NCBI GenBank assembly: GCA_025963875.1
Contig: JAOPZY010000062.1
Location: 1-36,160 of the forward strand
Reading direction: 5' to 3'
From: Actinomycetota bacterium
GTDB taxonomy: Bacteria; Actinomycetota; CADDZG01; JAHWKV01; JAOPZY01
DNA: 36,160 nt
The translations under genes were made by a program, and so were the position numbers. Positions 1 to 33,599 of this stretch are shown one piece after another; the first letter of the stretch is position 1, and each line of letters opens with the position of its first letter. Under the pieces are notes generated by a model, which was not told the DNA's origin, did not search any database, and saw only the letters and a program-made list of their open reading frames with translations.

Positions 1-2
1 TC

Positions 3-3691: not shown

Positions 3692-3693
3692 GC

Positions 3694-6600: not shown

Positions 6601-7086
6601 CTTGAAGATGATGCGGGCGTCCCGGTAGCGGTCCGGCGTGTCGCTCCAGACGTAGAAGTCACGGTGGACGCTTCCGGGCCGTGCCCGCCGTGCCCGCTGG
6701 AACCACGGGTGCTGGTCGGAGCTGTGGTTGAGCACCAGTTCGGTGATCACCTTCAGCCCGCGCCACCGGGCCTCCCGCAGGAACGTCTTGAAGTCCCGCA
6801 GGGTCCCGTAGGAGGGGTGGATGTCGGTGTAGTCGGCGATGTCGTAGCCGTCGTCGCGCAGGGGGGAGGGGTAGAACGGCAGCAGCCAGACCGCCGTGAC
6901 CCCGAGGTCCTGCAGGTAGTCGAGCTTGCTCGTGAGTCCCTTGAAGTCACCGATGCCGTCGGAGTCGGAGTCGGAGAATGCCCGCACCGGCACCTCGTAG
7001 ATGACGGCGTCCTTGTACCAGAGCGTGTCCCCCGAGTGAGGCTGTCCGACCAGGGTTGACTGTGCCGCGGCGGTCCTACGGGCCAT
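3694..7086 (-). CDS. treS: Trehalose synthase fused to maltokinase (TreS-Mak/Pep2)
   Basis: N-terminus [49 protein letters not shown]-terminus AEQSNTSV and [13 protein letters not shown]...IIDFEGEP (maltokinase). Confidence 0.96.
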
Positions 7087-9043
7087 AACTCACGGGGGCG
7101 TCGTGGGGGCGCAGGGCCAGGATGTGGGCGGGCAAGGCGGCGGGGTCGAGGCGAACGTAGTTGCGGGGGCCGCTCCAGGTGAACCTCGTGCCGGTCAGCA
7201 GGTCCTCGACCTGGTACGGGTCGTAGGCCGGCAGGCCGAGCGCCGCCAGGGGGAGGTCGACCCAGCCGGACTGGGCGTAGTGCGGGTCGAGGTTCACGAC
7301 GACCAGGATGACATTGGACAGGTCATCTGTTGCCTTCGTCCAGGCGATGAGCTGGTCGTTGTCCACCGGTTGGAAGGCGGGGATGGCGTCGCCCTGGAGG
7401 GCCGGGTTGTCGTTGCGGGCGAGGTTCACCCGGGCGATCACCTCGCTCAGGCTGTCCATCCGGTGCAGGTCCCAGCTGCGGATCTCGTACTTCTCCGAGT
7501 TCAGGTACTCCTCCGAGCCGGGGGTGATGGGGGCGTCCTCGCCCATCTCGAACGGCGGGCCGTAGATGCCGTAGGAGGGGCTCAGGCAGGCCGCCAGGAT
7601 CAGCCGGGCGACGAAGGCCGCCCGGCCGCCGCCTCCCTGAAGCTGCTGGGCCAGGATGTCGGGCGTGTTCGGCCAGAAGTTGGGCCGGAAGAACTCCCTG
7701 ACCTCGGTGGTGGTGAGCTCGGTGACGTACTCGATGAGCTCGGCCTTCGTCGTCCGCCAGGTGAAGTACGTGTACGACTGGGTGAAGCCGAGCTTCGCCA
7801 GGCGGTACATCACCTTCGGGCGGGTGAATGCCTCGGCCAGGAACAGCACGTCGGGGTGCTCGGCCTTCACGCCACCGATCAGCCACTCCCAGAAGGCGAA
7901 CGTCTTGGTGTGGGGGTTGTCGACCCGGAAGATCTTCACCCCATGGCCGATCCAGTAGTCCACGACCTCTTTCAGCGCCTCCCAGAGGTTCTGCCAGTCC
8001 TCGCTCTCGAAGTCGAGCGGGTAGATGTCCTGGTACTTCTTCGGGGGGTTCTCGGCGTACTGCAGGGTGCCGTCGGGCCGGGCCCGGAACCACTGGGGGT
8101 GCTCGGTGACCCACGGATGGTCGGGGGAGGCCTGGATCGCGAAGTCGAGCGCGATCTCGAGGCCGAAGCGCCCGGCCGCCACGACCAACCGGTCGAAGTC
8201 GGCGATGGTGCCGAGTTCCGGGTGGATGGCGGTGTGGCCGCCCTCAGCGCCGCCGATGGCCCAGGGGCTGCCGGGATCTTCGGGGCCAGCCTCCGTCGAG
8301 TTGTTCTTGCCCTTGCGGTGGGCGACGCCGATGGGGTGGATCGGCGGCAGGTACAGCACGTCGAAGCCGAGCCCGGCGACGTACGGCAGGCGCCGCTCGA
8401 CGTCCTTGAGCGTGCCGTGGCGGCCCGGCTCGTCCGATGCCGAGCGCGGGAACATCTCGTACCAGGCGCTGAAGCGGGCCCGGGGCCGGTCCACGACCAT
8501 GCCGTACTCCTGAGACGAGCCGGCCAGGGTGGTGTCGGCGTAGGCCGAGACCAGGGCCACCATCTCGCTGCTCAGGCCCAGCAGGTCGCCGGGGCCACGA
8601 AGCTGCTCCGCCTGGGCGAGCAACCGCTCTGCGTCCTCGCCGGGGGCGCGCTTGGCGGCTGCCTCGATCAGGTCCGCCCCGATCAGGCGGTCCACCTTGA
8701 CGTCCACCCCGGCTTCGCGCTTTTTCTGCATCCCGCGCCACCAGGTGGCGAAATGATCCACCCAACCGCGAACCGAGTACTCGTAGTTGCCGATCTCCTC
8801 CGGGACGAAGGAAGCCCGCCAGCGGTCGTTGCCCAGGTCCTCCATCGGCATCTCGGTCCACTGCTTGGCGCCGTGCCGCCGCCAGCCCAGGATGCCGGTG
8901 ACCACGTCGTGGCCGTCGGCGAAGACGTCCGCCTCCACGGTGACCGTGTCGCCCGTTATGCGTTTGATGGCGAACCGTCCGCAGTCGATCTCGGGTTGCA
9001 CACCCTCCACGACAACGCGGCGCCTGCCGTCGCTCAAGTTCAT
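7076..9043 (-). CDS. glgE: Alpha-1,4-glucan:maltose-1-phosphate maltosyltransferase
   Basis: [82 protein letters not shown]. Confidence 0.97.
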
Positions 9044-9187
9044 GCGCCTCGCCTTTATGACTTGCTCAGGGACTTGCTCGGGCCGGTCCGGATAAGGTCC
9101 ACTCTAAAGGATGCCTGCCGACCTCTCGCCCTTCGTTGCTCAGGGGTTCATACCCAAGGCCGGGGCACCATCATGCATGGGGTATTC

Positions 9188-15987: not shown

Positions 15988-16464
15988 CTAGTTCGATGAC
16001 TCCCGGCGATCTCGCATCCCCCGCACCGCCGTGGAGATCTCTTCGGCGTCCAGCACATCGGCCATGAGGCCCACCTGGTCGTCCCAGGTGTCGGCCGGTA
16101 TCCAGGACCTGATTTCCTCTTCCAAAATATGGTAGACGTCGAGACCCAACTGGGCCTCTGCCAATGGACCTGCGTACGTCGGGTCCCCGATGATCACGGT
16201 CTCCGCCGAGATCTCTGCGCTCTCCCCATCCGGGGCTCCGAGCAGCACCAGCAGCTTGTCCTTGCCGTGCTGGTTGACCAACCGGAGGATCGCTTCCTGG
16301 GTTCCCAGGTCCATGGCTCCCGACGCCGTTCAGACGAAGCACTCGGTGGCCGTGAACACCACATCGCTGCCGGCTGCCTTGGCGCACGCTGCGATGGCGG
16401 GGCCCGCCACGCCGTCGCGTTCGCCGAGGGCGATCACGAACTTGCCGTCGAACACTGGAGACAT
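15988..16464 (-). CDS. grdA: Glycine/sarcosine/betaine reductase selenoprotein A (158 aa, Sec at codon 45)
   Basis: From ATG 16464 (purine-rich AAAGGGGG upstream): [27 protein letters not shown]...ATECFV-TGA(16332-16330)-TASGAMDL..., continuing in frame into ORF 15988..16314 ([17 protein letters not shown]). Has the GrdA CxxU motif. Confidence 0.95.
16296..16309 (-). promoter_or_regulatory. Candidate bacterial SECIS hairpin of grdA
   Basis: CCTGG-GAAC-CCAGG begins 20 nt after the UGA; the loop starts with G. Confidence 0.6.
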
Positions 16465-16513: not shown

Positions 16514-17941
16514 CTACGAACCCTGATTTCGCTCGAGCAGGACGCTCATACCGTCGGATGCCTGTGTCATCCTCCCCAGAAACAGGCTTCCCTTTGCAAT
16601 CATATGCACTCGGGTCGCGTCGCCGCTGGTCAGCCGGCGCACCGCGTGCGGAAGGTAGCACAGCGCCGAGGCGAGGTGGCCCTGCGTGGGAGCGAAGCCG
16701 GGCATGCCCCGCTCGGCCATGAACTGCGGGATCGCCTCCCGGCCGATGTCCCCCCGCCGCGCGGCGAGGGCGGCCAGGGTCTTGTAGTTGCGCTCGGGAA
16801 CATTGCCCGAGCCCTGGGGCTCGGTGATCTCGGGGTTGTGGAGCTCGGTGGCGTAGTCGTCGACGTCGAGCATGCTGAGGCCGAGCTCCTCGAGCGGCTG
16901 GACGCCGAGCGCCTCCATGATCAGCGGGTTGGACGAGCCCGCCTGCACCCGGTGGCGACCGACGCCGTCGAGGCGCATCACGGGCGAGGCACCGTCGTCG
17001 GTGGTCACCAGGGCGGCCGAACCGCCCACGACGTCCTCGAGGACCGGCAGGCCATGCTTCAGGTGGCCCTGGAACTTCATGCCCAGCTTGGGTAGGGATC
17101 CCCCGCCCACCACCGCGACGTTGCGGAAGACCCCCGAAGCGACCAGCGCGCCGGCGATCACGAGCGCCGGGACGGGCGCGGCGCAGAAGTTCTTCACATC
17201 GGCGCCGGATGCCTGGCCGAGCCCGGCCGCCTCGGCGATGGTCTTGCCCATGTTGCCGCCGCCGCGCTGGTAGCGGTCGCCGACGGCCTCCTCCGAGCAG
17301 GAGATGACGTAGTCGATGCTGTCGGGATCGATCCCGTGGTCGTCGATGAGGTGCAGCAGGGCGAGGGTGCCGGTGGCCTTGCAGGCGAGGTTCTCGAGCA
17401 GCACGCCGGCGGCGAGCGCGTCGTCGGAGTCGTGGGCGTGGCGGAAGCCCGCGGCCAGCCGGTCCCGCGCGACGTGCAGCGGCAGGGAGCCGTGCTCGGC
17501 GGCCACGGCCTCGGCGTCGCCCGAGGCGGCAGCCAGCCGGTCGAGGTTCAGCCTCTTGGCGAGGGGATGCCGGGCAAGACCGGCTGCGGCGAGCTCGGCC
17601 ACCTCGTAGTCGAGGGTGACGAGACCGAACTGGTCCAGGCAGGCCAGCAGGCCGAGGAACTCCTCCTCGGGCATGATCTCGCCGCCGGAGGTGAAGCGGC
17701 CGGCGGCCGGTCCCGCCCCGACCCAGGGACGCGCCGGCAGGTCGCGGGGGTGGAGGGCGCCGATGTAGGCCTGGTGGGGCAGGTAGGCGACTGCCTCGTC
17801 GAAGCTTCGCAGCGACCCGAGGAACTGTGCCAGCACCTCGGCGTTCCGGGGCAGCTCACGGCTCGGCTTCGAGCCGTGGCGGGCGAGGCCCGGCACGTGG
17901 GCCAGCACCTGGGCGGCGTGACTGACGACGGGGTTGCCCAT
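16514..17941 (-). CDS. grdC: Glycine/sarcosine/betaine reductase component C, FabH-like subunit
   Basis: [92 protein letters not shown]. Confidence 0.93.
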
Positions 17942-17949
17942 CTACGTTC

Positions 17950-19269
17950 TCACGCTGGTGCCGGCGCCACGAGCATCGGGTCGAAGATCGTCGGCTTGTG
18001 GACCTCGGTCGAGACCGCGACCAGCGCCGTCTCCAGCAGCCGGCGGCGCCAGGCCCGCTCGGCTTCGGGATCGAGGCTGGGGTCCCCGGCGGGGAAGGGG
18101 ATGCCCCGCGTCGGCACGATGCGCGGCGCGCCCACCCTCGCCGCGATGGGCACGAGGTTCACCAGCAGGGCGGTGGGGATCCCGGCCCGCTCCAGCTCCT
18201 TCGCAAGCGTTGACCCGCAACGCGTCCCGGTCCCTCACGTGGCGGTCAGGATCGCCGCCTGGACGCCGGCACGGCGAAGCTCCGCTGCCCACTCGACACC
18301 GAAATGCGTGGCGTCGGCAACGCCGGTCCCGTTGCCGGCGGTGACGAGGTAGTCCGGGTGCAGGGCCTTGATCTCCCCGGACGCCTCCATCTCCCGGGCG
18401 ACGTCGAGGGGCAGCAGGCGGTTGGGGTCGGCGTTGGCGACCACGGTCGAGAAGCCGCCGTGGACGGACTGGAACTCGCCGGCGGCCATGGTGTCCCGGC
18501 CGGTGAGGGGGTAGCGGAACCAGTGCTTGGCCCGGGCGGATTCGAGGCGGTCGGGGTTGCCGAAGGGCACGAGCGCCCCCTCGGTGAGGATCGCCACGAC
18601 GGCTTCCCGGGGGTCGGCGATGGGGGCCGCGGGGGCCACGTGGCCGAAGTCGGGGAGCTTGATCTCGGTCGTCTTGCCGCCGGCGAGCCGGGACAGCGCC
18701 AGCAGCACGGCGCGCTGCGCCGCCGTGAGGGGGGCCAGCGAGTTGCGCCGGGCGCCGGCAGATGCACCGCCGATGACGCCTTCCGCCTCGCCGGGCGTCC
18801 CGCCCTTGGCCAGGACCGCCGCGGCGGCGGCCATCTTCGTCAGGGCGTCGCCCATGTGCCGCGCCGCGTCGCCCGAGTTGACTGCGACCGCCGGGGCCAC
18901 CTCGGGCACCCCCGGGTTCGACGGGTCCATGGCGGCGAGCGCGGGGATGCCGGCCGCCGACGCCGCGGCCGCCACCCTGGCGCAGGCGATGCCGTAGCGG
19001 CCGCTCCCGAAGGCGGGGCCCGCGATCAGCAGTTCGGCGCCGGCCTCGGTGGCCAGGGCGAGGATCTCGGCGGGGGCGTTGCGCTCGGACGCCGCATAGT
19101 CGTCGCCGCAGTACACGGTGGCCACCAGTTCGTGGCCCTCCGCCGCCAGGGCTGCGGCGAGCTTGCGCCCGGGCCCGACGGCCCCCTCGCGCGATGCGGG
19201 CAGGGTGGACGCCTTGTCCTCCCCGCCGATGCCCGCGAAGAACTGGTTGATGTAGTGGACGACCTTCAT
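17950..19269 (-). CDS. grdB: Glycine/sarcosine/betaine reductase-family selenoprotein B (439 aa, Sec at codon 345)
   Basis: ATG 19269 MKVVHYINQFFAGIGGEDKA, GPAFGSGRYG, HGGF, DPNRLLPLD, then AAILTAT-TGA(18237-18235)-GTGTRCGSTLAKELERAGIP, continuing in frame into ORF 17950..18162 (VGAPRIVP...GDPSL). Confidence 0.95.
18207..18223 (-). promoter_or_regulatory. Candidate bacterial SECIS hairpin of grdB
   Basis: GCGTTG-CGGGT-CAACGC starts 11 nt after the UGA, the spacing known for the E. coli fdhF SECIS. Confidence 0.7.
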
Positions 19270-20561
19270 TCGCTCACCATGTCCGCTCCCGACGCTGTCA
19301 GCTTTCCCCATCCGAGCGGGCTCAACGCCGCGACGATGACCGCGGTGGGCACCTCCATCGCCGCCGAGGCGTCGACGTCGAGGAGGGCGAAGCGCTCGGC
19401 GCCGTAGGCCTTCTCCACCGCCGGGAGCTGGAGTCGCTCGTCGTAGTTGCCGGTCGAGACCATGGCCGTGGCGGTCGAGGGCGGGGAGACGAGCGGCGGC
19501 GCGTTCCCGTCGGGGCCGGACATTTCGGAGAAGAGCCCCACCCCCAAGATCCCGACCTCCTCCAGCGCATCCATCTTCAGCGAATTGTCGGAGTCGGCGT
19601 TGCCCCCGCCCTCCTTCGTGATGATGGCGGCGTCCCAGCCGAGGGCGGCGCACAGCCGGGCGGTATGGGCGGCGGTCAGCTCCTTCGCCGCCTGGTCGAC
19701 CGGCTCCGGCGACAGGATCAGCCCGGCGAACTCCAGCGTTGCCGTGTCGGCGGCGCGCAGGGCCGCGACGACCGGGTTGTTCTGGTGGACGTAGGTGGGA
19801 TTGCGGAGGGCCGGGTGCCCGTACTGGCCGCTCACGATCGCCCCGTCGTCGATTTCGCAGGCGTCGATCGCCACCGGCGGGGACCCCGCCAGGCTGTGGC
19901 CGTAGAAGAAGACGTCCTTGAAGGCGCCCTGCGTCTGCAGGTTGGTGATCGCCCCGACCCTCGGCAGCGGGCCCTGGCCGCTGCGGGGGCCGGGCGTCGC
20001 AATCTCTTCGACCTCGTCCGGCGGCGCGCCGGCCGCGGCAGTGGCGTCGGCGAGGCGGGCCGCCACCCTCAGCATCCCCCGGCGCAGGGCGGCGTCGACG
20101 TTCTCCCACGCGGCGCCCTCGGCGGGCTCGAACTCGACGACGAGGTTGTGGGTGAGGCCCAGCGGCGACAGCTCGGCGGCCGGGCCGGACATCTCGACCA
20201 GCGCCTCCTGCGCCCTGGGCAGGAAGCCGGCGGCCACGACGGCGGCGCCGCGCAGCACATGGGTCTCGCCCCGCCCCTGGACCTTGGCGGGGGAGACGAA
20301 GCCCGGGAAGGCGCCCCCTTTTGGACCCTTGGACCTGGGCTCGACCGCGTCGAGCACCTTGACGATGCGGGCGCTGTCGCCGGGCGACACCCAGCTCAAC
20401 CGCACCGAGGTGAGGGCCGGGTCGGCCACCAAGGCCTCGAGCTCGGGCCTCGACGCGCTGAGCGTGCCTGCCTCGAACCCCGTTGCGTCGCCGAAGCCGA
20501 CCGCCGTCACCCGGTGAATGAGGCGCCGGAGTGCAACAGGGCTGGGCACCATGGAAACCAT
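19266..20561 (-). CDS. grdE: Reductase component B proprotein-like subunit (GrdE/GrdG/GrdI family)
   Basis: 3' part of ORF 19266..20945 from ATG 20561 (or 20552): PGDSARIVKVLDAVEPRSK, GETHVLRG, VEMSGP, DGAIVSG, PTYVHQNNP, EGGGNADSD, AMVSTGN. ATGA overlap with grdB. Confidence 0.88.
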   Translation of the reverse strand: MVSMVPSPVALRRLIHRVTAVGFGDATGFEAGTLSASRPELEALVADPALTSVRLSWVSPGDSARIVKVLDAVEPRSKGPKGGAFPGFVSPAKVQGRGETHVLRGAAVVAAGFLPRAQEALVEMSGPAAELSPLGLTHNLVVEFEPAEGAAWENVDAALRRGMLRVAARLADATAAAGAPPDEVEEIATPGPRSGQGPLPRVGAITNLQTQGAFKDVFFYGHSLAGSPPVAIDACEIDDGAIVSGQYGHPALRNPTYVHQNNPVVAALRAADTATLEFAGLILSPEPVDQAAKELTAAHTARLCAALGWDAAIITKEGGGNADSDNSLKMDALEEVGILGVGLFSEMSGPDGNAPPLVSPPSTATAMVSTGNYDERLQLPAVEKAYGAERFALLDVDASAAMEVPTAVIVAALSPLGWGKLTASGADMVSE

Positions 20562-20636: not shown

Positions 20637-21629
20637 ATGGATTCTGTGACCCGGCTCAAGACCGCCATCGCCCTCGAGAAACCCGACCGGCCGCCGTTCA
20701 CGCTGTGGGGGCACACCTTCAAGGAGGAGTGGAACCCCCAAGAGCTCGCGGCGATCACGGTGCAGCGGGCACGCCGCTACCGGCTCGACTTCGTCAAGCT
20801 CCAGCCCCGGGCAACCTTCTTCGCCGAGGCCTACGGCTCCCAGTACCAGCCCTCGGGCAGCGAAGAGGAGCACCCGACCCTCACCCGGGCCGGGGTCGAG
20901 ACGCTCGAGGACTGGGCGAAGCTCCCCGAGGTCGATGCCTCCCATCCGGCCTTCGCCGACCAGGTCGAGGCCCTCCGCCTGACCGTGGCGGAGCTCGGCG
21001 ACAAGATCCCCGTCATCCAGACGGTCTTCTCACCGCTCACGGTAGCCGGCCATCTCATCGGCAAGGACCCCGAGGGGGTTGTGAAGATGCTCCTCGACCA
21101 CCCGGATCTCCTCGGCCCCGCGCTCGCACGGATCGCCCGTGGCCTTGCCAGTTTCTCGACGGCATCGGTCAAGGCCGGGGGAGTGGGTGTCTTCTTCGCC
21201 ATCTCGGGTTACGCCTCGGCCGACATGCTGTCGGAGGAGGACTACCGCCGCCTCGCCCTCGGCCACGACCTGTCGGTCATCGAGTTGCTCCCGGAGGACG
21301 CCTGGTTCAACGTGGCCCACCTCTGCGGTTCCCGCCTGCACTTCGACATCGCCAAGGCGCTCGGGCTGCAGGCGGTGAGCTGGGACGTGTACCAGCCCGG
21401 CAACCCCACCCTGGCGGAGGGCCGTGACCACACCGGCATGGCCGCCATGGGGGGGCTGCGCCAGAAGACCACCCTGGTCAAGGCGACCCCGAAGGAGGTC
21501 ATCGCCGAGGGCCAGGCCGCCCTGGAGGGCACCGATGGCCGCGGCGTGATCCTCGCTCCCGGCTGCTCGATCGACGTCCACGCCGGCGACGACAACCTCT
21601 CCGCAGTGAAAGAGGTAGTCGCGGCGTGA
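20637..21629 (+). CDS. Uroporphyrinogen-decarboxylase/MT2-methyltransferase superfamily protein
   Basis: 3' part of ORF 19665..21629: PDRPPFTLWGH, PVIQTVFSPLT, AHLCG, MGGL, ILAPGCS. The HemE MRQAGR motif is absent. Confidence 0.85.
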   Translation: MDSVTRLKTAIALEKPDRPPFTLWGHTFKEEWNPQELAAITVQRARRYRLDFVKLQPRATFFAEAYGSQYQPSGSEEEHPTLTRAGVETLEDWAKLPEVDASHPAFADQVEALRLTVAELGDKIPVIQTVFSPLTVAGHLIGKDPEGVVKMLLDHPDLLGPALARIARGLASFSTASVKAGGVGVFFAISGYASADMLSEEDYRRLALGHDLSVIELLPEDAWFNVAHLCGSRLHFDIAKALGLQAVSWDVYQPGNPTLAEGRDHTGMAAMGGLRQKTTLVKATPKEVIAEGQAALEGTDGRGVILAPGCSIDVHAGDDNLSAVKEVVAA

Positions 21630-22030
21630 AGCCGGTGGCCGGGCTGGCCGAGATCGTGCTCTGGACCCACGACATGGACCGCTCACTCGCCTTCTACCGG
21701 GATCTGTTCGGCCTCGAGGTCATCTCACCGCCGGACTTCCCCAAGCTCTTTCTCTCCGCGGGGACCGGTCCCGGCGGCATCCCGGAGATGATCGTCCTCA
21801 TGCCCCACCCCGAGCCGGGGGGAACCTTCCCGGCCCCCAAGCCCGAGCGGGTGCTGCACCACATGGCCTTCGCGGTCGACCCCGGTGCCTACGACGATCT
21901 CGAGACCCGGTGCCGGGCAGCCGGCCTGGAGGTCCGCCAGGGCATCCACCCGGTCCTCAAGGGCGTGCGGACCTTCTACGTCGACGACCCCGAGGGCAAC
22001 GAGGTGGAGATCATCGCCCTGGAGGCCTGA
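21626..22030 (+). CDS. VOC (glyoxalase/bleomycin resistance) family protein
   Basis: DMDRSLAFYRDLFGL, LHHMAFAV, TFYVDDPEGNEVEI; GTGA overlap with the upstream gene. Confidence 0.9.
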   Translation: MKPVAGLAEIVLWTHDMDRSLAFYRDLFGLEVISPPDFPKLFLSAGTGPGGIPEMIVLMPHPEPGGTFPAPKPERVLHHMAFAVDPGAYDDLETRCRAAGLEVRQGIHPVLKGVRTFYVDDPEGNEVEIIALEA

Positions 22031-23662: not shown

Positions 23663-25834
23663 ATGAGGTTCGCCGCGATTTGCACGCTGATCGCCACACT
23701 CATCCTCCTGGGCGCCCCCGCCCATCCCGCCGCCGCGGCCGACCCCGTCCTGACCGCGAAGCTCGTCGACTTCCGGCCGTGGCTCGGGCCAACCAACGAC
23801 CTCACCGCGACGTTGCACCTCACCAACCACGGGTCCGACCGGCTGCCCCTGTCGGGGCTGCAGATCCACGTCGAGGTCTTCGCCGGCCCCCGGCACCGCA
23901 CCGACCTGGAGAACGAGTTCCAGGGGCATACCGGCCAGACTGTCTGGTCGGACACCGAGTACCTCTCCCTGCCGGACCTGGCTCCCGGTGAGAGCCGCGA
24001 CGTCCAGTTCGACCACCAGGCGCCCCTCTCGTCGATCACGTTCTTCAAGACGGGCGCCGACGACCGCGCCTACCCCATCCGCTTCACCGCGGGGGCGGGT
24101 GGCTTCACGGCCAAGCCGATCGATACCAACCTCCTGTATTTCACCGAGCCTCAGGGCGTGGCACACCCCCTCGGTGTGGCCCTGGTGATCCCCCTCGATG
24201 CCCCGACGGCCTTCGACGCCCAGGGGAGGGAGACCTCCCGGGCCCTGGAGCAGTCCCTGGTTGGCGATGGCCGCATCAACCGCATCCTCAACGCCCTCGA
24301 AGACTCCAAGCATGCCGAGGTCACCGTCACGATGGCGCCCAGCGGCAAGTTCCTCGACGACCTGGCCCTCATGGCGTCACCCGCCGGTTTCACGCGGGTC
24401 ACCCCCTCGGGCAGCCAGGCGGTCGGGCCAACGGACCCGGCCCCGCAGGCCGCCGCGGCGACGATCCTGCGCCTGAGGAGCCTCGCTGCCCGAGCCGGGG
24501 TCCGGCTCCTGGCCTCGCCCTACTCCGGCGCGCCGCTGCCGTCCCTCGTCAGCAACGGGCTGAGCGGCGATGTCAAGATGCAGGTGGAGGCCGGGCGGGC
24601 ACAGGTCAAGGCGGTGCTCGGCTTCGACCCCCTCGCCGGCTGGTTGCTCCCCTCCGGCGGCCTGCTCGACGAAGCAACGATGAGTCAGCTCACAGCGCTG
24701 GGTATCCAGAACGTCGTGGTGTCCCCGTCGTCGCTGCAGTCCGTCACCCCGCCCCTGCTCACGCCCGGGGCGGACGTCGTGCTGAAGAGCCTTCCGCCCC
24801 TCTCCCGTCAGAAGGCCCAGGTCACCTCGACCTCGGTGGGGGCGCTGGTTGTGGACGACGTCCTCTCCTCCCGCCTCGAGAGCCCACCCGGGTTGAACGC
24901 GCTGCAGGTCCGCCAGCGATTTCTTGCCGAGTCCGCCACCATCCTCCTCGAGCAGCCGGCCCACACCCGCTCGATTGCGGTGCTGGCACCCCCGGACTGG
25001 GCCCCTGACCCCTTGGTGATCAACGGCGTCCTGGACGCCCTGACCCCGACGGGCGGGTCTCCCTGGATGACGGGCACGGCTCCCGATGCCGTCGTCGGGG
25101 GTGCCTCGGACCCGCCGGCCCGGCTCGTCGCGCAGAACGTCAGCGATGCTCTTCCCCAGTCGCCGGGCCGGGACTACGTGGAGTTGCTCCGGTCGGCACG
25201 CAGCTCCCTGGGCGACTTCACGGCGATCGCCCCGCCGCCGGCGATCGTCAACGAGCTCAACCGGCGGCTACTCGTCGCGGAGGGCTCCGAGTGGTTGGGG
25301 CGGGGATCGGCCGCCGACCGGGGCAAGGCGTTCGCCCGCTCGGTGTCCGACGGCGTCAAGGGCGAGTTTGCCAAGATCCAGGCCCCCAGGGACCAACTGA
25401 TCGTGCTCACCAACCGCCACGCGACCATCCCGCTCGCCCTCACCTCGGGTACCTCCTACCCCGTGTGGGTCAAGGTGGGCCTGGAGTCGGACAAGCTCGC
25501 CTTCAAAGACGGCGTGCCGTGCCACAGCTCGGGGCTCCCGTCGCAGACGACCTGCCTCACCCTGGAGCTGAAGCCGGGGGCCCAGACCGTCCCGGTGAAG
25601 GCAACCGCCAACTTCACCGGCAGCTTCCACGTCCAGGTGGACCTGCTGACCGACACCTCGGCGCCGGCGAAGATCTCCACCGGCAGGCTGTCCATCCGGT
25701 CGACCGCCTACAACGTCGTCGCCCTTGCCCTGATGGCGGCGGCCGCTCTCTTCATCCTGTTCTCGTGGGCCCGCGGCATGGCCCGCCGGCGGATCGCTCT
25801 CCAGGGTGCGCCCGCCGGGGCGCCGGTAGACTGA
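23663..25834 (+). CDS. Secreted, C-terminally anchored protein (DUF6049-like)
   Basis: ATG 23663, signal peptide (...PAAAA-DP), C-terminal transmembrane helix plus RRR, motifs LLASPYS and QRFLAESA. Its position upstream of kinase/sigma/anti-sigma matches the usual actinobacterial context. Confidence 0.75.
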   Translation: MRFAAICTLIATLILLGAPAHPAAAADPVLTAKLVDFRPWLGPTNDLTATLHLTNHGSDRLPLSGLQIHVEVFAGPRHRTDLENEFQGHTGQTVWSDTEYLSLPDLAPGESRDVQFDHQAPLSSITFFKTGADDRAYPIRFTAGAGGFTAKPIDTNLLYFTEPQGVAHPLGVALVIPLDAPTAFDAQGRETSRALEQSLVGDGRINRILNALEDSKHAEVTVTMAPSGKFLDDLALMASPAGFTRVTPSGSQAVGPTDPAPQAAAATILRLRSLAARAGVRLLASPYSGAPLPSLVSNGLSGDVKMQVEAGRAQVKAVLGFDPLAGWLLPSGGLLDEATMSQLTALGIQNVVVSPSSLQSVTPPLLTPGADVVLKSLPPLSRQKAQVTSTSVGALVVDDVLSSRLESPPGLNALQVRQRFLAESATILLEQPAHTRSIAVLAPPDWAPDPLVINGVLDALTPTGGSPWMTGTAPDAVVGGASDPPARLVAQNVSDALPQSPGRDYVELLRSARSSLGDFTAIAPPPAIVNELNRRLLVAEGSEWLGRGSAADRGKAFARSVSDGVKGEFAKIQAPRDQLIVLTNRHATIPLALTSGTSYPVWVKVGLESDKLAFKDGVPCHSSGLPSQTTCLTLELKPGAQTVPVKATANFTGSFHVQVDLLTDTSAPAKISTGRLSIRSTAYNVVALALMAAAALFILFSWARGMARRRIALQGAPAGAPVD

Positions 25835-25838
25835 GTCG

Positions 25839-27341
25839 ATGATCGACGTCAGGCTCGCCGGCCGTTACCGACTGGAAAGCGAGATTGGCGCCGGAGGGAT
25901 GACGGGTGTCTGGCAGGCCGTCGACGAGGTTTTGGAACGACCGGTCGCCGTCAAGATCCTCCACCGCCATCTGCTCTCCAACCAGGTGTTCTGCGACCGT
26001 TTCCGGAAGGAGGCCCTGGCGGCGGGCGCCCTCATCCACCCGAATATCGTTTCGGTCTACGACACGGGCCAGCACGACGAGGCCCCCTACGTGGTGATGG
26101 AGTACGTCGCCGGTGGATCGCTGGCCCGCCGCCTCGTTCATGGTCCCCTCCCATCGGGCGAGGTGGCCGCCATCGGAGCCGATGTCTGCGAGGCGCTGGG
26201 CTATGCCCACCGTGTGGGGGTCGTGCACCGCGACCTGAAGCCGGACAACATCCTGGTCTCGGAATCCGGCCAGGTGAAGGTCACCGACTTCGCCGTCGCC
26301 GGGGCCGCCCTCGGTGGTGACCTGACGGCGACCGGGGCGCTGCTCGGTACGCTCTCGTTCCTGGCGCCCGAGGTGCTGGAGGGGGGCGAGCCAGACCCCG
26401 CCGCCGATCTGTACGCCCTGGGGGTGGTCCTCTTCAAGGCGCTGACGGGCCGGTCGCCGAGGGTGGCCGGCATGGACCTCGGCACCAGCGCCGGGAAGCC
26501 CCGTCCGCAGCCGGCCCATCCCCGGGACTTCCGCCCCGAGGTCCCCCGCGACCTGGACGCTGCGGTGGCCAGGGCCCTGTCGGCGAACCCCGCAGAGCGC
26601 TTCGCCGACGCCGCCGAGTTCGGTCGTGTGCTCCGTTCCGTGGCGCAGGCACGCCCGGCCCGGACGGCCGTCTCCTCGGCACCCGCCCCTCCCCCGCCCA
26701 GGACCCACCTGCCGGCTCCGGCGCCGCCGACCCCCGGCGACTCGATCTCCTTCGTACGCAGCGAAGGCCGCTGGCTGGCGCCGGTGGTGCTGCTGGTGCT
26801 CGTGGCGATCGCCGTCGTCATCGGTGTGCTGCAGCTCTCCGGCAAGGTCACGATCATCGGCGGTGGTGGGGGCAGCACTGCCGCGCCGGCTGCGAATCCG
26901 ACGGTGAGTCAGGTGGCACTGCACCCCGGCGGCACCTTGAAGCCCAACCCGCCTGCTGGGGATCCCTACGAGCACCAGGACCAGGTGGCGCTCGCCTTCG
27001 ACGGCAACCCCTCCACGTCGTGGAGCACGCAGTGGTACCCGACGCCGGTGTTCGGCGGGCTCCGCGATGGCGTCGGCATCTACGGGGATGCCGGCCAGCC
27101 GGTGGCGTTGAAGCGCATCGAGGTCGACACCGCCCTCCCGGGCTGGACGGCGGCGATCAAGACCTCGGACGACGGCCAGACCTGGAGCGCTCCGGGACCG
27201 TCGGCCACGGTGGACGCCCAGCACAGTTTCGACGTGAGCGCCCTGGGCTTGCACCGGTACTGGATGGTCTGGATCACGAACCTGGTCTCGGGTCCGAATG
27301 GCTACCAAGCCTCGATAGCGGAGATCAAGGCTTTCCACTGA
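25839..27341 (+). CDS. Membrane Ser/Thr protein kinase with C-terminal discoidin-like domain
   Basis: GAGGMT, VAVK, HRDLKPDN, DFA (in place of DFG), APE, DLYALG; Pro-rich linker, transmembrane helix, AFDGNPSTSWST...IAEIK. Confidence 0.92.
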   Translation: MIDVRLAGRYRLESEIGAGGMTGVWQAVDEVLERPVAVKILHRHLLSNQVFCDRFRKEALAAGALIHPNIVSVYDTGQHDEAPYVVMEYVAGGSLARRLVHGPLPSGEVAAIGADVCEALGYAHRVGVVHRDLKPDNILVSESGQVKVTDFAVAGAALGGDLTATGALLGTLSFLAPEVLEGGEPDPAADLYALGVVLFKALTGRSPRVAGMDLGTSAGKPRPQPAHPRDFRPEVPRDLDAAVARALSANPAERFADAAEFGRVLRSVAQARPARTAVSSAPAPPPPRTHLPAPAPPTPGDSISFVRSEGRWLAPVVLLVLVAIAVVIGVLQLSGKVTIIGGGGGSTAAPAANPTVSQVALHPGGTLKPNPPAGDPYEHQDQVALAFDGNPSTSWSTQWYPTPVFGGLRDGVGIYGDAGQPVALKRIEVDTALPGWTAAIKTSDDGQTWSAPGPSATVDAQHSFDVSALGLHRYWMVWITNLVSGPNGYQASIAEIKAFH

Positions 27342-27377
27342 TCTCCGGGTCGTCCCCCATACTTGGCCCCACTCATC

Positions 27378-27968
27378 ATGTGGATCGCGGATCTGGAGGC
27401 ACTGGGCGACGAGGAGCTGGTCCGGCGCTTCGTCTCGGATGGGTCGAGCGATGCGGTCGACGTCCTGCTGCGCCGCCACCAGGACCGCGTCCTCGGGCTC
27501 GCCTACCGGATCCTCGGCAACCGGGCCGATGCCCTCGACGCCTCCCAGGAGGTCTTCGTTGCCGTGTTCCGCAAGGCGGCGTCGTTCCGCCACCAGTCGG
27601 CCTTCACGACCTGGCTCTACCGCCTGACCGTCAACGCCTGCAACGATCACGCCCGCCGCCGGTCCCGCCTCCCGCAGCCGGCCGAGGCAGTCGACGTTGC
27701 GTCCCCCGACGCCGTCGGGAGGGCCGACGACCGCCTGGCCATCGCCGGCGCCATGCGCAAGCTGCCGCTGGAGCAGCGCACCGCGGTGATCATGCGGGAC
27801 CTGCTCGGGCTCAGCTACGACGAGATTGCCCAGGCGACCGACACCGCCGTTGGTACCGTGAAGAGCAGGATCTCCCGAGGCCGGGCAGCCCTGGCCGGTG
27901 GCCTGGGGGAACGCCCGGAACCGGAACCGGGAGAGGCTCCGGCCCGTCTAAGCCCGAAGAAGCCATGA
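27378..27968 (+). CDS. ECF RNA polymerase sigma factor (SigM-like)
   Basis: DALDASQEVF, FTTWLYRLTVN, LSYDEIA...GTVKSRISRGR. Start ATG 27378 or TTG 27363. Confidence 0.93.
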   Translation: MWIADLEALGDEELVRRFVSDGSSDAVDVLLRRHQDRVLGLAYRILGNRADALDASQEVFVAVFRKAASFRHQSAFTTWLYRLTVNACNDHARRRSRLPQPAEAVDVASPDAVGRADDRLAIAGAMRKLPLEQRTAVIMRDLLGLSYDEIAQATDTAVGTVKSRISRGRAALAGGLGERPEPEPGEAPARLSPKKP

Positions 27969-29106: not shown

Positions 29107-29181
29107 CGGCCCACCCGGCCGGCTGACCAGCCGCCAGCAAGCCGGACACCGGCAGGACGCAACGACTCAAAGGGGACAAAC

Positions 29182-30486
29182 ATGCCTGGCATAGCCCTAT
29201 TGGGCACCCAGTGGGGAGACGAGGGGAAGGGCAAGGTCACCCACCTGATGGCCGACGCCATGGACATGGTCGTCCGGTACCAGGGGGGGAACAACGCCGG
29301 CCACACGGTCATCGTGGGCACGGAGACGTTCAAGCTGCACCTGCTCCCTGCCGGCATCCTGTACCCGCACATCACGCCGGTGCTCGCGCCCGGGGTGGTC
29401 GTGGACCCCTCCGTCCTGCTCGAGGAGATCGATGCCCTCGCCCTCCGCGGCATCTCGGCCGAAAAGCTCCGCATCTCGGGCAATGCGCACCTGATCATGC
29501 CCTACCACCGGGAGCTCGACCGCCTGACGGAGCGCCGCCTCGGCAAGATGAAGCTCGGGACCACCCGGCGGGGCATCGGCCCGGCGTACGCCGACAAGGC
29601 GTCCCGCATCGGCATCCGGATCCAGGACCTCCTGGACCGCAAGATCTTCACCGAGAAGCTCGACGTCGCCCTGCGGGAGAAGAACCTGCTCCTGACGAAG
29701 ATCTACGGACGGCTGCCGATGAATGCGGATGCGATCCTCCAGGAGTACCTGGGCTACGCCGACCGCCTGGAGCCCCATATCACCGACACGGTCGCCGAGG
29801 TCCACACCGCGCTCGACGCCGGAAAAAACGTCCTGTTCGAAGGTGCTCAGGGCATGCTGCTCGATCTCGACCACGGCACGTACCCGTTCGTGACCTCGTC
29901 GAACTGTGTCGCCGGCGGGGTCTGCACCGGGGCGGGGGTCGGCCCCCGGATGATCGACCGCATCATCGGCGTGACCAAGGCCTACACCACGCGGGTGGGC
30001 GAGGGGCCGTTCCCCACCGAGGACCTGGGCCCCGACGGCGACCTCCTGGTCGAGCGGGGTGCCGAGTTCGGTGCCACGACGGGCCGCAAGCGCCGCTGCG
30101 GCTGGTTCGACGCGGTCATCGTGCGCTACGCCGCCCGGGTCAGCTCGCTGACCGAGATCTTCCTCACCAAGATCGACGTGCTGTCGGCCTTCGACCGGAT
30201 CAAGGTCTGCGTCGGCTACGAGCACGAGGGCAAGATCTACGAGACCTTCCCGCCGCACCAGACGATCTTCCACAAAGCGGTGCCGATCTACAAGGAGTTC
30301 GAAGGCTGGAGGACCGACATCAGCGGTGCCCGGAGCTGGGCCGACCTGCCCAAGGCCGCCCAGACGTACGTCGAAAGCCTGGAGCAGATGGTGGGCGTGC
30401 CCATCACCCAGATCTCCGTGGGAGCCGAGGCCACCGAGACCGTGACCCGGCTGGCCCCGGTGACTCCCCGGAGCGCCCAGGCCTGA
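29182..30486 (+). CDS. purA: Adenylosuccinate synthetase
   Basis: [32 protein letters not shown]...[28 protein letters not shown]. Confidence 0.98.
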
Positions 30487-30505
30487 CGCTGAGAGGACTG
30501 GGTTC

Positions 30506-31816
30506 ATGAGGGTCCTCGTCGTCGGCGGCGGCGGGCGGGAGCACGCGCTGGTCTGGAGCCTCTCGAAAAGCTCCCTCGTCGCCGACCTCCTCTGCGCACC
30601 CGGCAACCCGGGCATCCAGGAGCTCGCCCGCTGCCGGCCGGTCGCCGTCGACGACCTGCCGGCCATGGTCACCATGGCCGCCCGGGAATTCGTCGACCTG
30701 GTGGTCGTCGGGCCCGAGGCCCCCCTGGTGGGGGGACTTGCCGACGCTCTGCGAGAGGCGGGCATCCGCGTGTTCGGCCCCGGGGCTGCCGGCGCCCGCC
30801 TCGAGGGTTCCAAGGGATGGGCCAAGTCCCTCATGGCCGCCGCCGGCATCCCGACGGCCGCCGCGCAGAGCTTCGACCGTGCCGACGAGGCGATCGCCTA
30901 CGCCCGGCAGCTGCTCGCGGCCGGGACCGGCGTGGTGGTGAAGGCCGACGGCCTGGCCGCCGGCAAGGGGGTCACCGTCTGCGACGACGAAGCCCAGGCC
31001 GCCACCGCCATCACCGACGCCCTGGACCGGCGGGTGTTCGGACCGGCGGGGAGCCGGGTGCTCGTCGAGGAGCGCCTCGCCGGCGAGGAACTGTCCGTGC
31101 TGGCGTTCTCCGACGGCAAGACGGTCCTCCCGATGCAGGCCGCCCAGGACTTCAAGCGGGCCCACGACGGCGACCTCGGCCCCAACACCGGTGGGATGGG
31201 GTCGCACTCGCCCGTCCCGTCCTGCACGCCGGACGTGGCCGGGAGGATCACCGACCAGGTGCTGGAGCCCGTCGCCGCCGCCCTGGCCGCGGAGGGCGAG
31301 CCGTACGTCGGCGTCATCTACGCCGGGATCATGCTGACGCCGGACGGGCCGAAGGTCCTGGAGTTCAACTGCCGCTTCGGCGATCCCGAGACCCAGGCCC
31401 TGCTGCCGAGGCTGGCGTCGGACCTCATGGAGCCCATCCTCGCCTGCACGGACGGCACCCTGTCGGGGGTGCGCCTCGACTGGCGTCCGGACGCATGCGT
31501 GGCGGTGGTGGCCGCCGCTGCCGGCTACCCCGGCACCCCCGCGACCGGCGCCCCGATCTCGGGCCTCGAGGGCGCCGAGGCGCTGACCGGGCTCCCGGTC
31601 TTCCAGGCGGGTACCCGGCCAGGTCCGGACGGGTCGGTGGTGACCTCGGGCGGCAGGGTGCTCGCCGTGGCCGCCCTCGGGGATGCTCCGTGGCTTGCCC
31701 GCCGCCGGGCTTACGATGGGCTCGCGAAAGTTTCGTTCGATGGCATGTGGTACCGGTCGGACATCGGCCCCCGGCCTGGCTTCGAGGCCGGATCTGCAAA
31801 GGGGGGTTTGGGGTGA
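30506..31816 (+). CDS. purD: Phosphoribosylamine-glycine ligase
   Basis: [55 protein letters not shown]. Confidence 0.98.
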
Positions 31817-32298
31817 CGAAAGCGCTTGACGACGGCGATCCGCTCGTCGGCATCGTGATGGGCTCGAGCTCGGACCAGCCGAAGATGCAGGCTGCGAACT
31901 TCATTCTCGAACGCTTCGGGGTCCCGTTCGAGTCCAACGTCATCAGCGCCCACCGCACGCCGGAGCAGGCCCACGAGTACGCCAAGCTGGCCGAGGACCG
32001 TGGCCTGGAGGTCATCATCGCCGCCGCGGGCCGGGCCGCCCATCTCGCCGGGGTGATGGCCGCCAACACCATCCTGCCGGTGATCGGCGTGCCCATCTAC
32101 ACCGACCATCTCGGCGGTGCGGACTCCCTCTACTCGACGGTGCAGATGCCGTCGGGGGTGCCCGTCGCCACGGTCGGGCTGTCCAATGCCACCAACGCCG
32201 CCATCCTCGCCGTGCAGATGCTGGCCCTCGCCCGGCCTGAGCTGCGCCACCAGCTCCGCAACTTCAAGAAGGAGCTCAGCCAGGGGCTCAAGATTTGA
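31813..32298 (+). CDS. purE: N5-CAIR mutase / AIR carboxylase catalytic subunit
   Basis: From GTG 31813: [41 protein letters not shown]. Confidence 0.97.
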
Positions 32299-33599
32299 TC
32301 GACCGCTACACGCGGCCTGCGATGGCCGCCGTCTGGAGCGAGGAGCGCAAGCTCTCGCACTGGCTGCGCATCGAGATCCTCGCGGTGCAGGCCCGGGTGG
32401 AGCGCGGCGAGGTCCCCGCAGAGGACCTGGCCGAGATCCGGGCGAAGGCCGCCTTCGACCTCGAGCGGGTGGCCGAGATCGAACGCACGACCCGCCACGA
32501 CGTCGCGGCGTTCCTCGACAACGTCGCCGAGTTCGTCGGCCCGGCCGCCCGGCACCTCCACTACGGCATGACCTCCTCCGACATCCTCGACACGACGCTC
32601 GCCCTCCAGCTCGTCGAGGCGGCCGACCTGCTCCTCGCGGGCATCGTGGCGGTTCGGGACGTGGCGGTCCGCCTCGCCCGCCGGTACGAGTCGACGCCGA
32701 TGGTCGGGCGCACGCACGGCATCCACGCCGAGCCGACGAGCTTCGGCCTCAAGGCGGCGGGCTGGGCCTTCGAGCTGGAGCGGGGCCGGGTGCGGATGCA
32801 GCGGGCGAAGGAGTCCGTGGCCGTCGGCAAGCTCTCGGGCGCCGTCGGCAACTACAGCCAGCTCCCCCCCGAGGTCGAAGCCTCCGTCTGCCGCGAGCTC
32901 GGCCTGGCGGCCGACCCCGTCTCCACGCAGGTCGTCGCCCGGGACCGCCACGCCGAGTTCTCGGCGGCGATGGCCGTCGTCGCGGCGTCGATCGAACGCA
33001 TCTTCACCGAGATCCGCCACCTCGCCCGCACCGAGGTCCGGGAGGTGGAGGAGCCCTTCGCCGAAGGGGCGCAGAAGGGCTCGTCGGCCATGCCGCACAA
33101 GCGCAACCCGTGGCGCTCCGAGCGGCTCTGCGGCCTGGCCCGCGTGGTGCGGGCCGGTGTCGTCCCGGCCCTCGAGAACGTCGCCCTGTGGCACGAGCGG
33201 GACATCTCCCATTCCTCGGTGGAGCGGGTCACCCTGCCCGACTCCTGCCTCGCCCTCGACTTCATGCTCGGCGAGGCCGAGGAGCTGCTCGAGGGACTCC
33301 GCGTCTATCCCGAGCGGATGCTCGCCAACATCGAGGCGTCCGGGGGGGTCGTCTTCTCCCAGTCGGTGCTGCTCTCGCTCATCGATGCGGGCATGAGCCG
33401 CGACGAGGCCTACCGCATCGTGCAGGAGTCGTCGATGGAGGCGTGGCGCACCGGAGGCCACCTGCGGGACCTGCTGAAGTCGTCGCCCGCTGCCAAGCGC
33501 CTGGAGCCGGCGGCCATCGATGTCTGCTTCGACCCGTCACGTTACCTGCAGCACGCCGGGGAGGTCGTCGCCCGGCTGGCAACCTTGGAGGAGACATGA
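32295..33599 (+). CDS. purB: Adenylosuccinate lyase
   Basis: [53 protein letters not shown]. Confidence 0.98.

Follow-up and report, generated by a model that had tools for sequence, protein, structure and literature searches.

Selenoprotein Reductases of the Glycine Reductase Family

Enzymes of the Grd type are known from textbooks as components of anaerobic amino-acid fermentation. Glycine reductase (EC 1.21.4.2), which is distributed in Clostridia, Synergistota and Desulfovibrio, consists of GrdE/GrdB, GrdA, GrdC/GrdD and thioredoxin. The E subunits of glycine and sarcosine reductases (GrdE/GrdG) self-cleave at a Cys to form a pyruvoyl group that binds the amine substrate, and in the textbook enzyme the acyl group is accepted by the thiol of GrdD. 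The present analysis concerns a compact operon with the gene order grdE′-grdB′(UGA)-grdC′-grdA(UGA) on the minus strand of a 36,160-nucleotide stretch of Actinomycetota DNA (hereafter, the window; assembly GCA_025963875.1, contig JAOPZY010000062.1, G+C content of approximately 70%), which belongs to a metagenome-assembled genome (MAG) of 3.84 Mb in 273 contigs with a completeness of 94.6%. The operon, of a kind common in uncultured soil Actinomycetota, represents a so far undescribed branch of the glycine/sarcosine/betaine-reductase family, and its host is a soil actinobacterium of aerobic type. With a probability of roughly 0.6, it would encode a pyruvoyl-independent, GrdD-less selenoreductase for a substrate of the type X-CH2-COO−, probably not an ammonium compound.

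All four proteins of the operon fall into the same Pfam families as their counterparts in glycine reductase. As in that enzyme, selenocysteine (Sec) is present in GrdB′ and GrdA, GrdA and GrdC′ score above the equivalog cut-offs, and a thioredoxin gene accompanies the operon in 31 relatives, where it lies between grdC′ and grdA, but not in the window. In contrast to glycine reductase, the window system lacks the N-C site, carries U-GTG-TRC instead of U-GTC-TRC and HGGFS instead of HGGYD, contains a GrdC′ that has Cys428 and lacks the canonical VGC Cys, shows the order E-B-C-(Trx)-A, has no GrdD found in the genome, and resides in aerobic-type soil Actinomycetota.

Three other systems resemble the locus in lacking the processing Cys. 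The E-type subunit of betaine reductase (GrdI/GrdH) is presumably uncleaved. Unlike the window clade, GrdI nests within the canonical GrdE/GrdG clade, its loop reads SGSF-MPCSSKW instead of SGQY-GHPALRN, and its partner GrdH keeps both an Asp and the first Cys after Sec. Fluoroacetate reductase (FarE/FarB; Synergistota, NF053623, PMC10838667) resembles the window system also in the B subunit, where both have lost the first post-Sec Cys and carry an uncharged residue at the Asp position of H-x-G-[YF]-D; according to the available part of PMC10838667, Far feeds the ordinary GrdA and protein C of its host. The FarE loop, however, contains WRYW and a 6-residue gap in the six loci fetched, and FarB differs from GrdB′ in both of its motifs (Table 2). 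The third system, designated here the 'NY' type, is a second uncharacterised Cys-less type, represented by four loci (L105-L108) of a Desulfobaccales MAG, two Desulfovibrio records including D. piger ATCC 29098, and a Desulfovirgula MAG. It carries the motif SGNY/SSNY-IIA[CS]QKN and falls below all NCBIfam cut-offs. It shares with the window U-GTG-TRC, the loss of Asp (here to Asn) and, in the Desulfobaccales locus, the E-B-C-A order, whereas it forms a separate clade in the tree and its GrdC keeps the Pro and the canonical VGC Cys. With the D-proline reductase models, the window proteins score 27.2 (PrdA) and 71.2 (PrdB) bits, below the equivalog cut-offs of 700 and 300.

Altered Processing Site of GrdE′

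The original prediction, made from the sequence alone, held that a GrdE-like subunit reading DGAIVSG-QYGHPALRN-PTYVHQNNP at 19790-19850 (minus strand) lacks the cysteine that becomes the pyruvoyl cofactor. The string is present as quoted in the grdE′ reading frame (Table 1), where it extends a few codons past 19790; the likeliest real start of the frame is the Met at 20561. GrdE′ matches Pfam Gly_reductase (PF09338) at 1.3e-91 (307.7 bits, above the gathering score) and stays below every specific NCBIfam model, with 200.8 bits for sarcosine_GrdG (cut-off 780), 105.9 for FarE (675) and the low PrdA score given above. Residues 238-258 read D-D-G-A-I-V-S-G-Q-Y-G-H-P-A-L-R-N-P-T-Y-V; the pyruvoyl-precursor Cys is replaced by Y247 (codon 19821-19823) and the second conserved Cys by A251. 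The reference motif DGAIVSG-NCVSACDKN ascribed to GrdE/GrdG was confirmed, as SGNC-V[SA][AS]CDK[NI] is found in 77 of 83 canonical-type E subunits (79 loci, fetched via the family alignment), and the absence of the processing Cys from GrdI likewise holds in 3/3 loci next to GrdH.

Table 1. Features of the operon and its divergent neighbours in the window
Feature	Position	Strand	Description
grdE′	19269..20561	-	431 aa, GrdE-like, without cleavage Cys; first gene of operon; stop overlaps grdB′ start (ATGA)
S244-G-Q246-Y247-G-H249-P-A-L-R-N254 block of GrdE′	19800..19832	-	replaces SGNC-VSACDKN
grdB′	17953..19269	-	selenoprotein-B-like, 439 aa with in-frame TGA read as Sec; Pfam GRDB PF07355 4.2e-100, 335.8 bits, above gathering score
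H270-G-G-F-S274 of GrdB′	18448..18462	-	Ser where GrdB, GrdF and GrdH carry Asp
Sec345 TGA codon of grdB′	18235..18237	-	within T-A-T-U-G-T-G-T-R-C; first Cys of U-x-x-C-x-x-C is Gly
Candidate selenocysteine insertion sequence (SECIS) hairpin	18207..18223	-	GCGUUG-loop-CAACGC, 12 nt past grdB′ UGA; RNAalifold, 6 pairs
grdC′	16517..17941	-	component C beta subunit, 475 aa; NCBIfam reduct_C_beta 561.3 bits, above equivalog cut-off 450
Cys428 of GrdC′	16658-16660	-	within clade motif PTQGHLAS[AS]LCYLPHA
grdA	15991..16464	-	selenoprotein A, 158 aa
Sec45 TGA codon of grdA	16330-16332	-	within E-C-F-V-U-T-A-S-G (C-x-x-U kept)
URO-D / MtaA-CmuA-like gene	20637..21626	+	divergent from grdE′, 330 aa; Pfam URO-D 5.7e-34
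Glyoxalase/VOC-family gene	21626..22027	+	directly downstream of URO-D-like gene; Pfam Glyoxalase 2.8e-12

Both Cys residues are missing in all 80 related loci, which share the motif S[GA]Q[FYL]GHP[SAG]L[KR]N; no Cys, Ser or Thr occurs at the processing position in any of them. In an alignment of 51 sequences, G240, V243, S244, G245, G248, H249, P250, L252, N254 and T256 are invariant. Because the 80 loci agree and these block residues do not vary, the absence of the Cys is neither a chance event nor a sequencing slip. Judged from its sequence, GrdE′ is unable to form a pyruvoyl group at the processing site of the family, where an aromatic residue stands and the second Cys is gone; with the homologous-site pyruvoyl excluded by the missing Cys, the textbook Schiff-base handling of glycine or sarcosine is therefore unlikely.

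An AlphaFold2 model of GrdE′ built with 51 sequences (predicted local distance difference test score 87, predicted template modelling score 0.89) places Q[FY]GHP in a loop between the strand 242-244 and the helix 256-260, and the invariance of this motif in the clade is compatible with a role in a pocket. Foldseek comparison of the model with the Protein Data Bank (PDB) gave nothing specific (best E-value 0.036), and a wide VIA-align search returned generic alpha/beta matches covering residues 194-425 only (Z ≤8.0); this outcome is no proof of a new fold. PDB sequence searches found no relative of GrdE′ or GrdB′.

Marker Motifs of GrdB′

GrdB′ passes only the broad NCBIfam subfamily model TIGR01918 (378 bits) and falls below the specific models for GrdF (381.3 bits, cut-off 800), GrdB (TIGR01917; 348.3, 602.2), GrdH (NF040795; 342.2, 775) and PrdB. 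For comparison, reference types were labelled by means of NCBIfam cut-offs, and their motifs were then read from the loci (Table 2). Among the B-type partners of canonical loci, 11 of the 15 tested pass TIGR01917, and all 11 adjoin an NC-type E subunit. GrdH exceeds the NF040795 cut-off in three of five genomes searched ([Clostridium] ultunense, Sporomusa rhizae and a Halanaerobium MAG), and, of 151 genomes belonging to a Synergistales-type order, 11 contain a FarE above its own cut-off (694-937 bits); the six loci were taken from these.

Table 2. Marker residues of the E and B subunits in the labelled types and in the window clade (counts refer to the B-subunit motifs)
Type	E-subunit site	B-subunit motifs	Count
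Canonical-type loci (glycine, sarcosine-like)	NC	HGG[YF]D, U-GTC-TRC (one U-GSC-TRC)	76/81 each
GrdI/GrdH (betaine)	SF	HAG[FY]D, U-GTC-TRC	3/3
FarE/FarB (fluoroacetate)	without Cys	HQGYN, U-GTS-SR[CG]	6/6
Desulfovibrio piger 'NY' type	NY	HGGYN, U-GTG-TRC	3 loci
Window clade	Q[FYL]	HGGFS, U-GTG-TRC	Asp 0/75, Ser 73/75; 73/73

The Asp of the GrdB motif and the first Cys after Sec are kept in the three enzymes acting on a cationic nitrogen, and both are lost in the type that has been assigned a non-amine substrate and in the window clade. This pattern suggests that the Asp of GrdB may contact the substrate nitrogen. GrdB′ was also compared with the published glycine motif of GrdB, as given in the methods of PMC9751293: it reads GPAFGSGRYG, VHGGFS, RLLPLD and TAGNGTGV where the motif has GPxF[NF]AGRYG, AHGGxD[QTAP], RV[IL]PxD and TxGNxTxV, and three of these four blocks fail (the later blocks were compared by eye).

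Selenocysteine Decoding

The in-frame TGA codons of grdB′ and grdA encode Sec, because the frames continue with family motifs beyond them, the codons are conserved in relatives, selA, selB and selD are present in the genome, a hairpin is kept downstream of the grdB′ codon, and RNA-library contigs bridge both codons. TGA stands at the same place in 71/71 full-length GrdB′ relatives and at the Sec45 position in 51/51 GrdA relatives; GrdA itself scores 194.9 bits with NCBIfam reduct_selen_A (NF040748), above the equivalog cut-off of 130. Of the six pairs of the grdB′ hairpin, four are identical in 36 of 36 sequences, and two persist via single-side changes, one in all 36 and one in 35 of 36. The stem is thus held across synonymous sites in a genome with approximately 90% G+C at third codon positions, with no compensatory change seen in the 36 sequences. 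RNAalifold gave no consensus for the region around the grdA UGA, where three rows are out of register owing to a second TGA. Contigs from soil RNA libraries contain pieces of all four operon genes and of the URO-D-like gene, and no other letter is listed at either TGA codon; such contigs do not by themselves show transcription and give a weak hint only, and operon parts without RNA cover carry no meaning.

In the genome to which the window belongs, selA (517 bits) adjoins selB (330 bits), and selD scores 386 bits, all above the cut-offs. The selD gene (contig C179:4504-5433, minus strand) carries one in-frame TGA, so SelD is probably a selenoprotein itself. Since 99 of the 113 class genomes have selA irrespective of the operon, this operon is not the sole reason for keeping the Sec trait. 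No tRNA-Sec was found in the genome, either by aragorn (0 among 43 tRNAs) or with RF01852, whose best match of 40.6 bits lies below the 47-bit threshold; as the MAG is fragmented into 273 contigs, this is no evidence of absence. The best RF01852 match (C37:10587-10661, minus strand; 75 nt) has a good T-arm, the acceptor 3′ strand and a CUUCAAA stretch, lacks a proper anticodon arm and looks like a partial tRNA.

GrdC′ and the Missing GrdD

In the clade, GrdC′ is altered relative to canonical GrdC. Cys428 is present in 65/65 clade sequences where Pro is found in 46/46 canonical ones, His368 is present in 65/65 where 40/46 have Gln, and the Cys of the canonical VGC..AH motif (44/46) is Ala or Gly. 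A PDB sequence search with GrdC′ returned only a weak KAS III match. GrdD was looked for in the genome with NF040747 and PF02504 (the PlsX/GrdD fold family), with 0 matches, and in five relatives with long contigs, where nothing exceeded the cut-off (best 21.6 bits). A tblastn query with the canonical GrdD of the [Clostridium] ultunense locus gave best E-values of 1.3 in the genome and 2.0 in the 80 clade loci, whereas the same query recovers GrdD in 35 of 79 canonical-type loci. Cys428 may take the acyl group in place of the GrdD thiol.

Phylogeny and Distribution of the Clade

An exhaustive HMMER search of 1.84 billion representatives yielded 818 relatives at E ≤0.001. From 150 of these relatives, 120 of 380-470 aa were kept and 30 fragments or fusions were dropped; together with the window, seven clade loci and 15 labelled references, they gave a tree of 143 rows (quick IQ-TREE, LG+G4), in which support is given by the Shimodaira-Hasegawa-like approximate likelihood ratio test (SH-aLRT) only. 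All characterised types (GrdE, GrdG-like and GrdI) fall within one 19-row clade with a support of 100, inside which the GrdI clade (SH-aLRT 100) is nested. The window clade (11 rows, SH-aLRT 100) lies elsewhere, within a separate 86-row radiation (support 99), whose uncharacterised members carry pairs such as NY, DY and QY at this site. A Cys at the processing column is found in 16 of the 143 rows, 15 of them in the 19-row clade. As the remaining 127 rows have none, the missing Cys is not a loss specific to this gene but the usual state of the uncharacterised PF09338 majority. None of 104 family representatives received an NCBIfam name above a cut-off.

A word-indexed search listed 1253 relatives, the best 120 of which are 61-97% identical, come from Acidimicrobiales and Actinomycetota MAGs, and are mostly unnamed or annotated as glycine/sarcosine reductase. 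Among the GTDB species genomes, 121 stretches encode a relative, and 80 loci, many of which end early, were kept. They come from Acidimicrobiales, Thermoleophilia (Solirubrobacterales and Gaiellales), Mycobacteriales, unclassified Actinomycetota MAGs, two Dormibacterota and one Gemmatimonadota. Downstream of grdE′, tblastn detected GrdB′ in 79, GrdC′ in 73 and GrdA in 58 of them, and the mean column identity of the clade alignments is 69-73% across many lineages. Within the class of the window, grdE′ occurs in 22 of 113 genomes, a count that, like those of selA and the URO-D-like gene, draws partly on unpublished genomes and on related ones that are not independent. By family, without the genome of the window, the figures are 5/5, 14/20, 1/1 and 1/86, and 20 of 26 other genomes of its order, unpublished ones included, carry the gene. 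Near-identical DNA was listed for 20 sequencing runs of 13 studies; 13 runs, mostly soil metagenomes, hold at least half of the sampled words, and one of them may be the source. No description of this actinobacterial clade was found in the literature, although the supplements of PMC10838667, PMC9751293 and PMC13188914 may hold wider trees.

Proposed Reaction and Alternative Explanations

The loss of the GrdB′ markers, namely the Asp and the first post-Sec Cys, makes an ammonium group improbable as X. A thiolate or thioether, a sulfonium, a halide and an ether oxygen are among the candidates, and the confidence in any particular identity is much lower than that in the general statement; for some lineages, the URO-D/MtaA-like gene is a hint that X carries sulfur or a methyl group. 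In the proposed mechanism, the uncleaved GrdE′/GrdB′ pair would bind X-CH2-COO−, the substrate carboxylate probably being held by Lys/Arg253, which is present family-wide. No Schiff base would be required for X, which the selenolate of Sec345 would displace, perhaps with His249, invariant in the Q[FY]GHP loop, as a general acid, and the carboxymethyl group would be transferred to Sec45 of GrdA. GrdC′ alone would then form an acetyl thioester on Cys428, to be released as acetyl phosphate, acetyl-CoA or acetate, and thioredoxin would re-reduce GrdA. A fuller version of this proposal is tentative and, in our estimate, somewhat less probable than its negation: a three-protein selenoreductase architecture, widespread in aerobic soil bacteria, that would cleave a non-amine carboxymethyl compound (a thioether, sulfonium, or halo- or alkoxy-acetate) without pyruvoyl, with Cys428 replacing GrdD and a zinc-thiol URO-D/MtaA-like enzyme processing the leaving group in some lineages.

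The original prediction went on from the missing Cys to a pre-activated onium substrate. Its view that glycine and sarcosine are improbable substrates stands insofar as binding through a Schiff base is unlikely, no homologous-site pyruvoyl being expected, whereas the step to a betaine-like compound is not supported. A betaine-type reductase that would release an amine or sulfide and an acetyl unit from glycine betaine, another quaternary amine or a sulfonium such as dimethylsulfonioacetate is an unlikely alternative for the locus, although GrdI is the only characterised Cys-less subunit for a nitrogen substrate, its onium substrate needing no pyruvoyl (available part of PMC10838667). The clade does not lie near GrdI in the tree, GrdB′ reaches less than the GrdH cut-off, the Asp and U-GTC-TRC that GrdH retains are both lost, and the neighbourhood has no conserved betaine transporter of the BCCT or ABC type. 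The URO-D/MtaA family includes methylamine- and methylthiol-specific methyltransferases, and the URO-D-like gene, which is confined to operon carriers (9/22 versus 0/91 class genomes), could handle a methylated leaving group; it is absent, however, from 13 of the 22 operon-bearing genomes. It is similarly improbable that the system is still a glycine or sarcosine reductase in which the amine is activated otherwise and which soil bacteria use to break down glycine or in a reductive-glycine-type route. GrdA and GrdC′ do exceed the equivalog cut-offs of the glycine/sarcosine/betaine system, public annotations name relatives 'glycine reductase' or 'sarcosine reductase', the operon is flanked by genes for a Cu-amine-oxidase-like protein (11 loci), an FAD amine oxidase and a DAO oxidase (5 loci each), and the genome contains acetate kinase. 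Against these stand the processing position free of Cys, Ser and Thr, the failing blocks of the published GrdB motif, the TIGR01917 score below its cut-off, and the failure to find GrdD in the genome, five relatives and 80 clade loci. That the operon is a decaying or non-functional Grd remnant with true stops at TGA is hardly credible. Standard ORF calling breaks grdB′ and grdA at these codons and no tRNA-Sec was found in the MAG, but frame and motifs run on past the TGA in every full-length relative, identity is high across many lineages, selA, selB and selD are present, and contigs from soil RNA libraries include parts of each of the four genes.

Several observations weigh against a pyruvoyl-free reductase of a non-amine compound. 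As far as the sequence tells, a pyruvoyl or other carbonyl may be formed elsewhere in GrdE′, and GrdD could be substituted by an unrelated protein beyond recognition. The roles proposed for the GrdB Asp, His249 and Cys428 are drawn from conservation patterns alone, the tRNA-Sec was not recovered from the MAG, and no transporter, regulator or catabolic gene, betaine transporters included, is conserved throughout the flanks of the clade loci. Far, the sole non-amine reference, was assigned from transcript data and not from purified enzyme, according to the available part of PMC10838667.

Implications for Annotation and Soil Metabolism

The Grd selenoprotein machinery is found here in uncultured soil Actinomycetota with heme-copper oxidases (two COX1 genes in the genome of the window), with relatives in Dormibacterota MAGs and one Gemmatimonadota MAG, and it has lost four mechanism-defining features, i.e., the pyruvoyl Cys, the Cys after Sec, the GrdB Asp and GrdD. 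Automatic annotation either names these genes after glycine or sarcosine reductase or cuts them short at UGA, so that the metabolism reconstructed from soil MAGs is likely wrong at this point. Three markers (the residue pair of the NC site, the residue that follows HGG[YF] and the one located three after Sec) offer a cheap means of sorting the many uncharacterised PF09338/PF07355 proteins ahead of experiments. If a three-protein system does cleave non-amine compounds, it would represent a new reaction in soil carbon or sulfur cycling and an example of 'anaerobic'-type Sec enzymes working in oxygen-respiring bacteria.

Neighbouring Genes and Other Features of the Window

The URO-D-like gene lies divergently upstream of the operon in the window and in five other loci. 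Homologues at E ≤1e-40 are found in nine of the 113 class genomes, and in six of these nine the gene is on the same contig as grdE′, within 5 kb. The protein scores 86.5 bits with the NCBIfam methylcobalamin:CoM methyltransferase subfamily model, below the cut-off of 244. Its motifs H-L-C-G and A-P-G-C-S, which we take to resemble the zinc site of MtaA/MtbA/MtsA-type methyltransferases, are both present in two of three aligned close relatives, the third being a truncated match that spans the first motif only. The gene is possibly an accessory to the operon. The glyoxalase-family gene accompanies it in one of the 80 loci (tblastn). In nine loci, grdA is directly followed by a gene of the ODP family (oxygen-binding di-iron, beta-lactamase fold; e.g., L064:12823-13587), which might relate to oxygen handling around the Sec enzyme in aerobes.

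Elsewhere in the window, genes for GlgB-like, TreS-type (1131 aa) and GlgE proteins stand in a row at 1-9103 (minus strand) and correspond to the alpha-glucan GlgE pathway typical of Actinomycetota. At 29107-33596 (plus strand), purA, purD and purB lie together, preceded by genes for a Ser/Thr kinase (25830-27338), an ECF sigma factor (27342-27965) and a DUF6049 protein.

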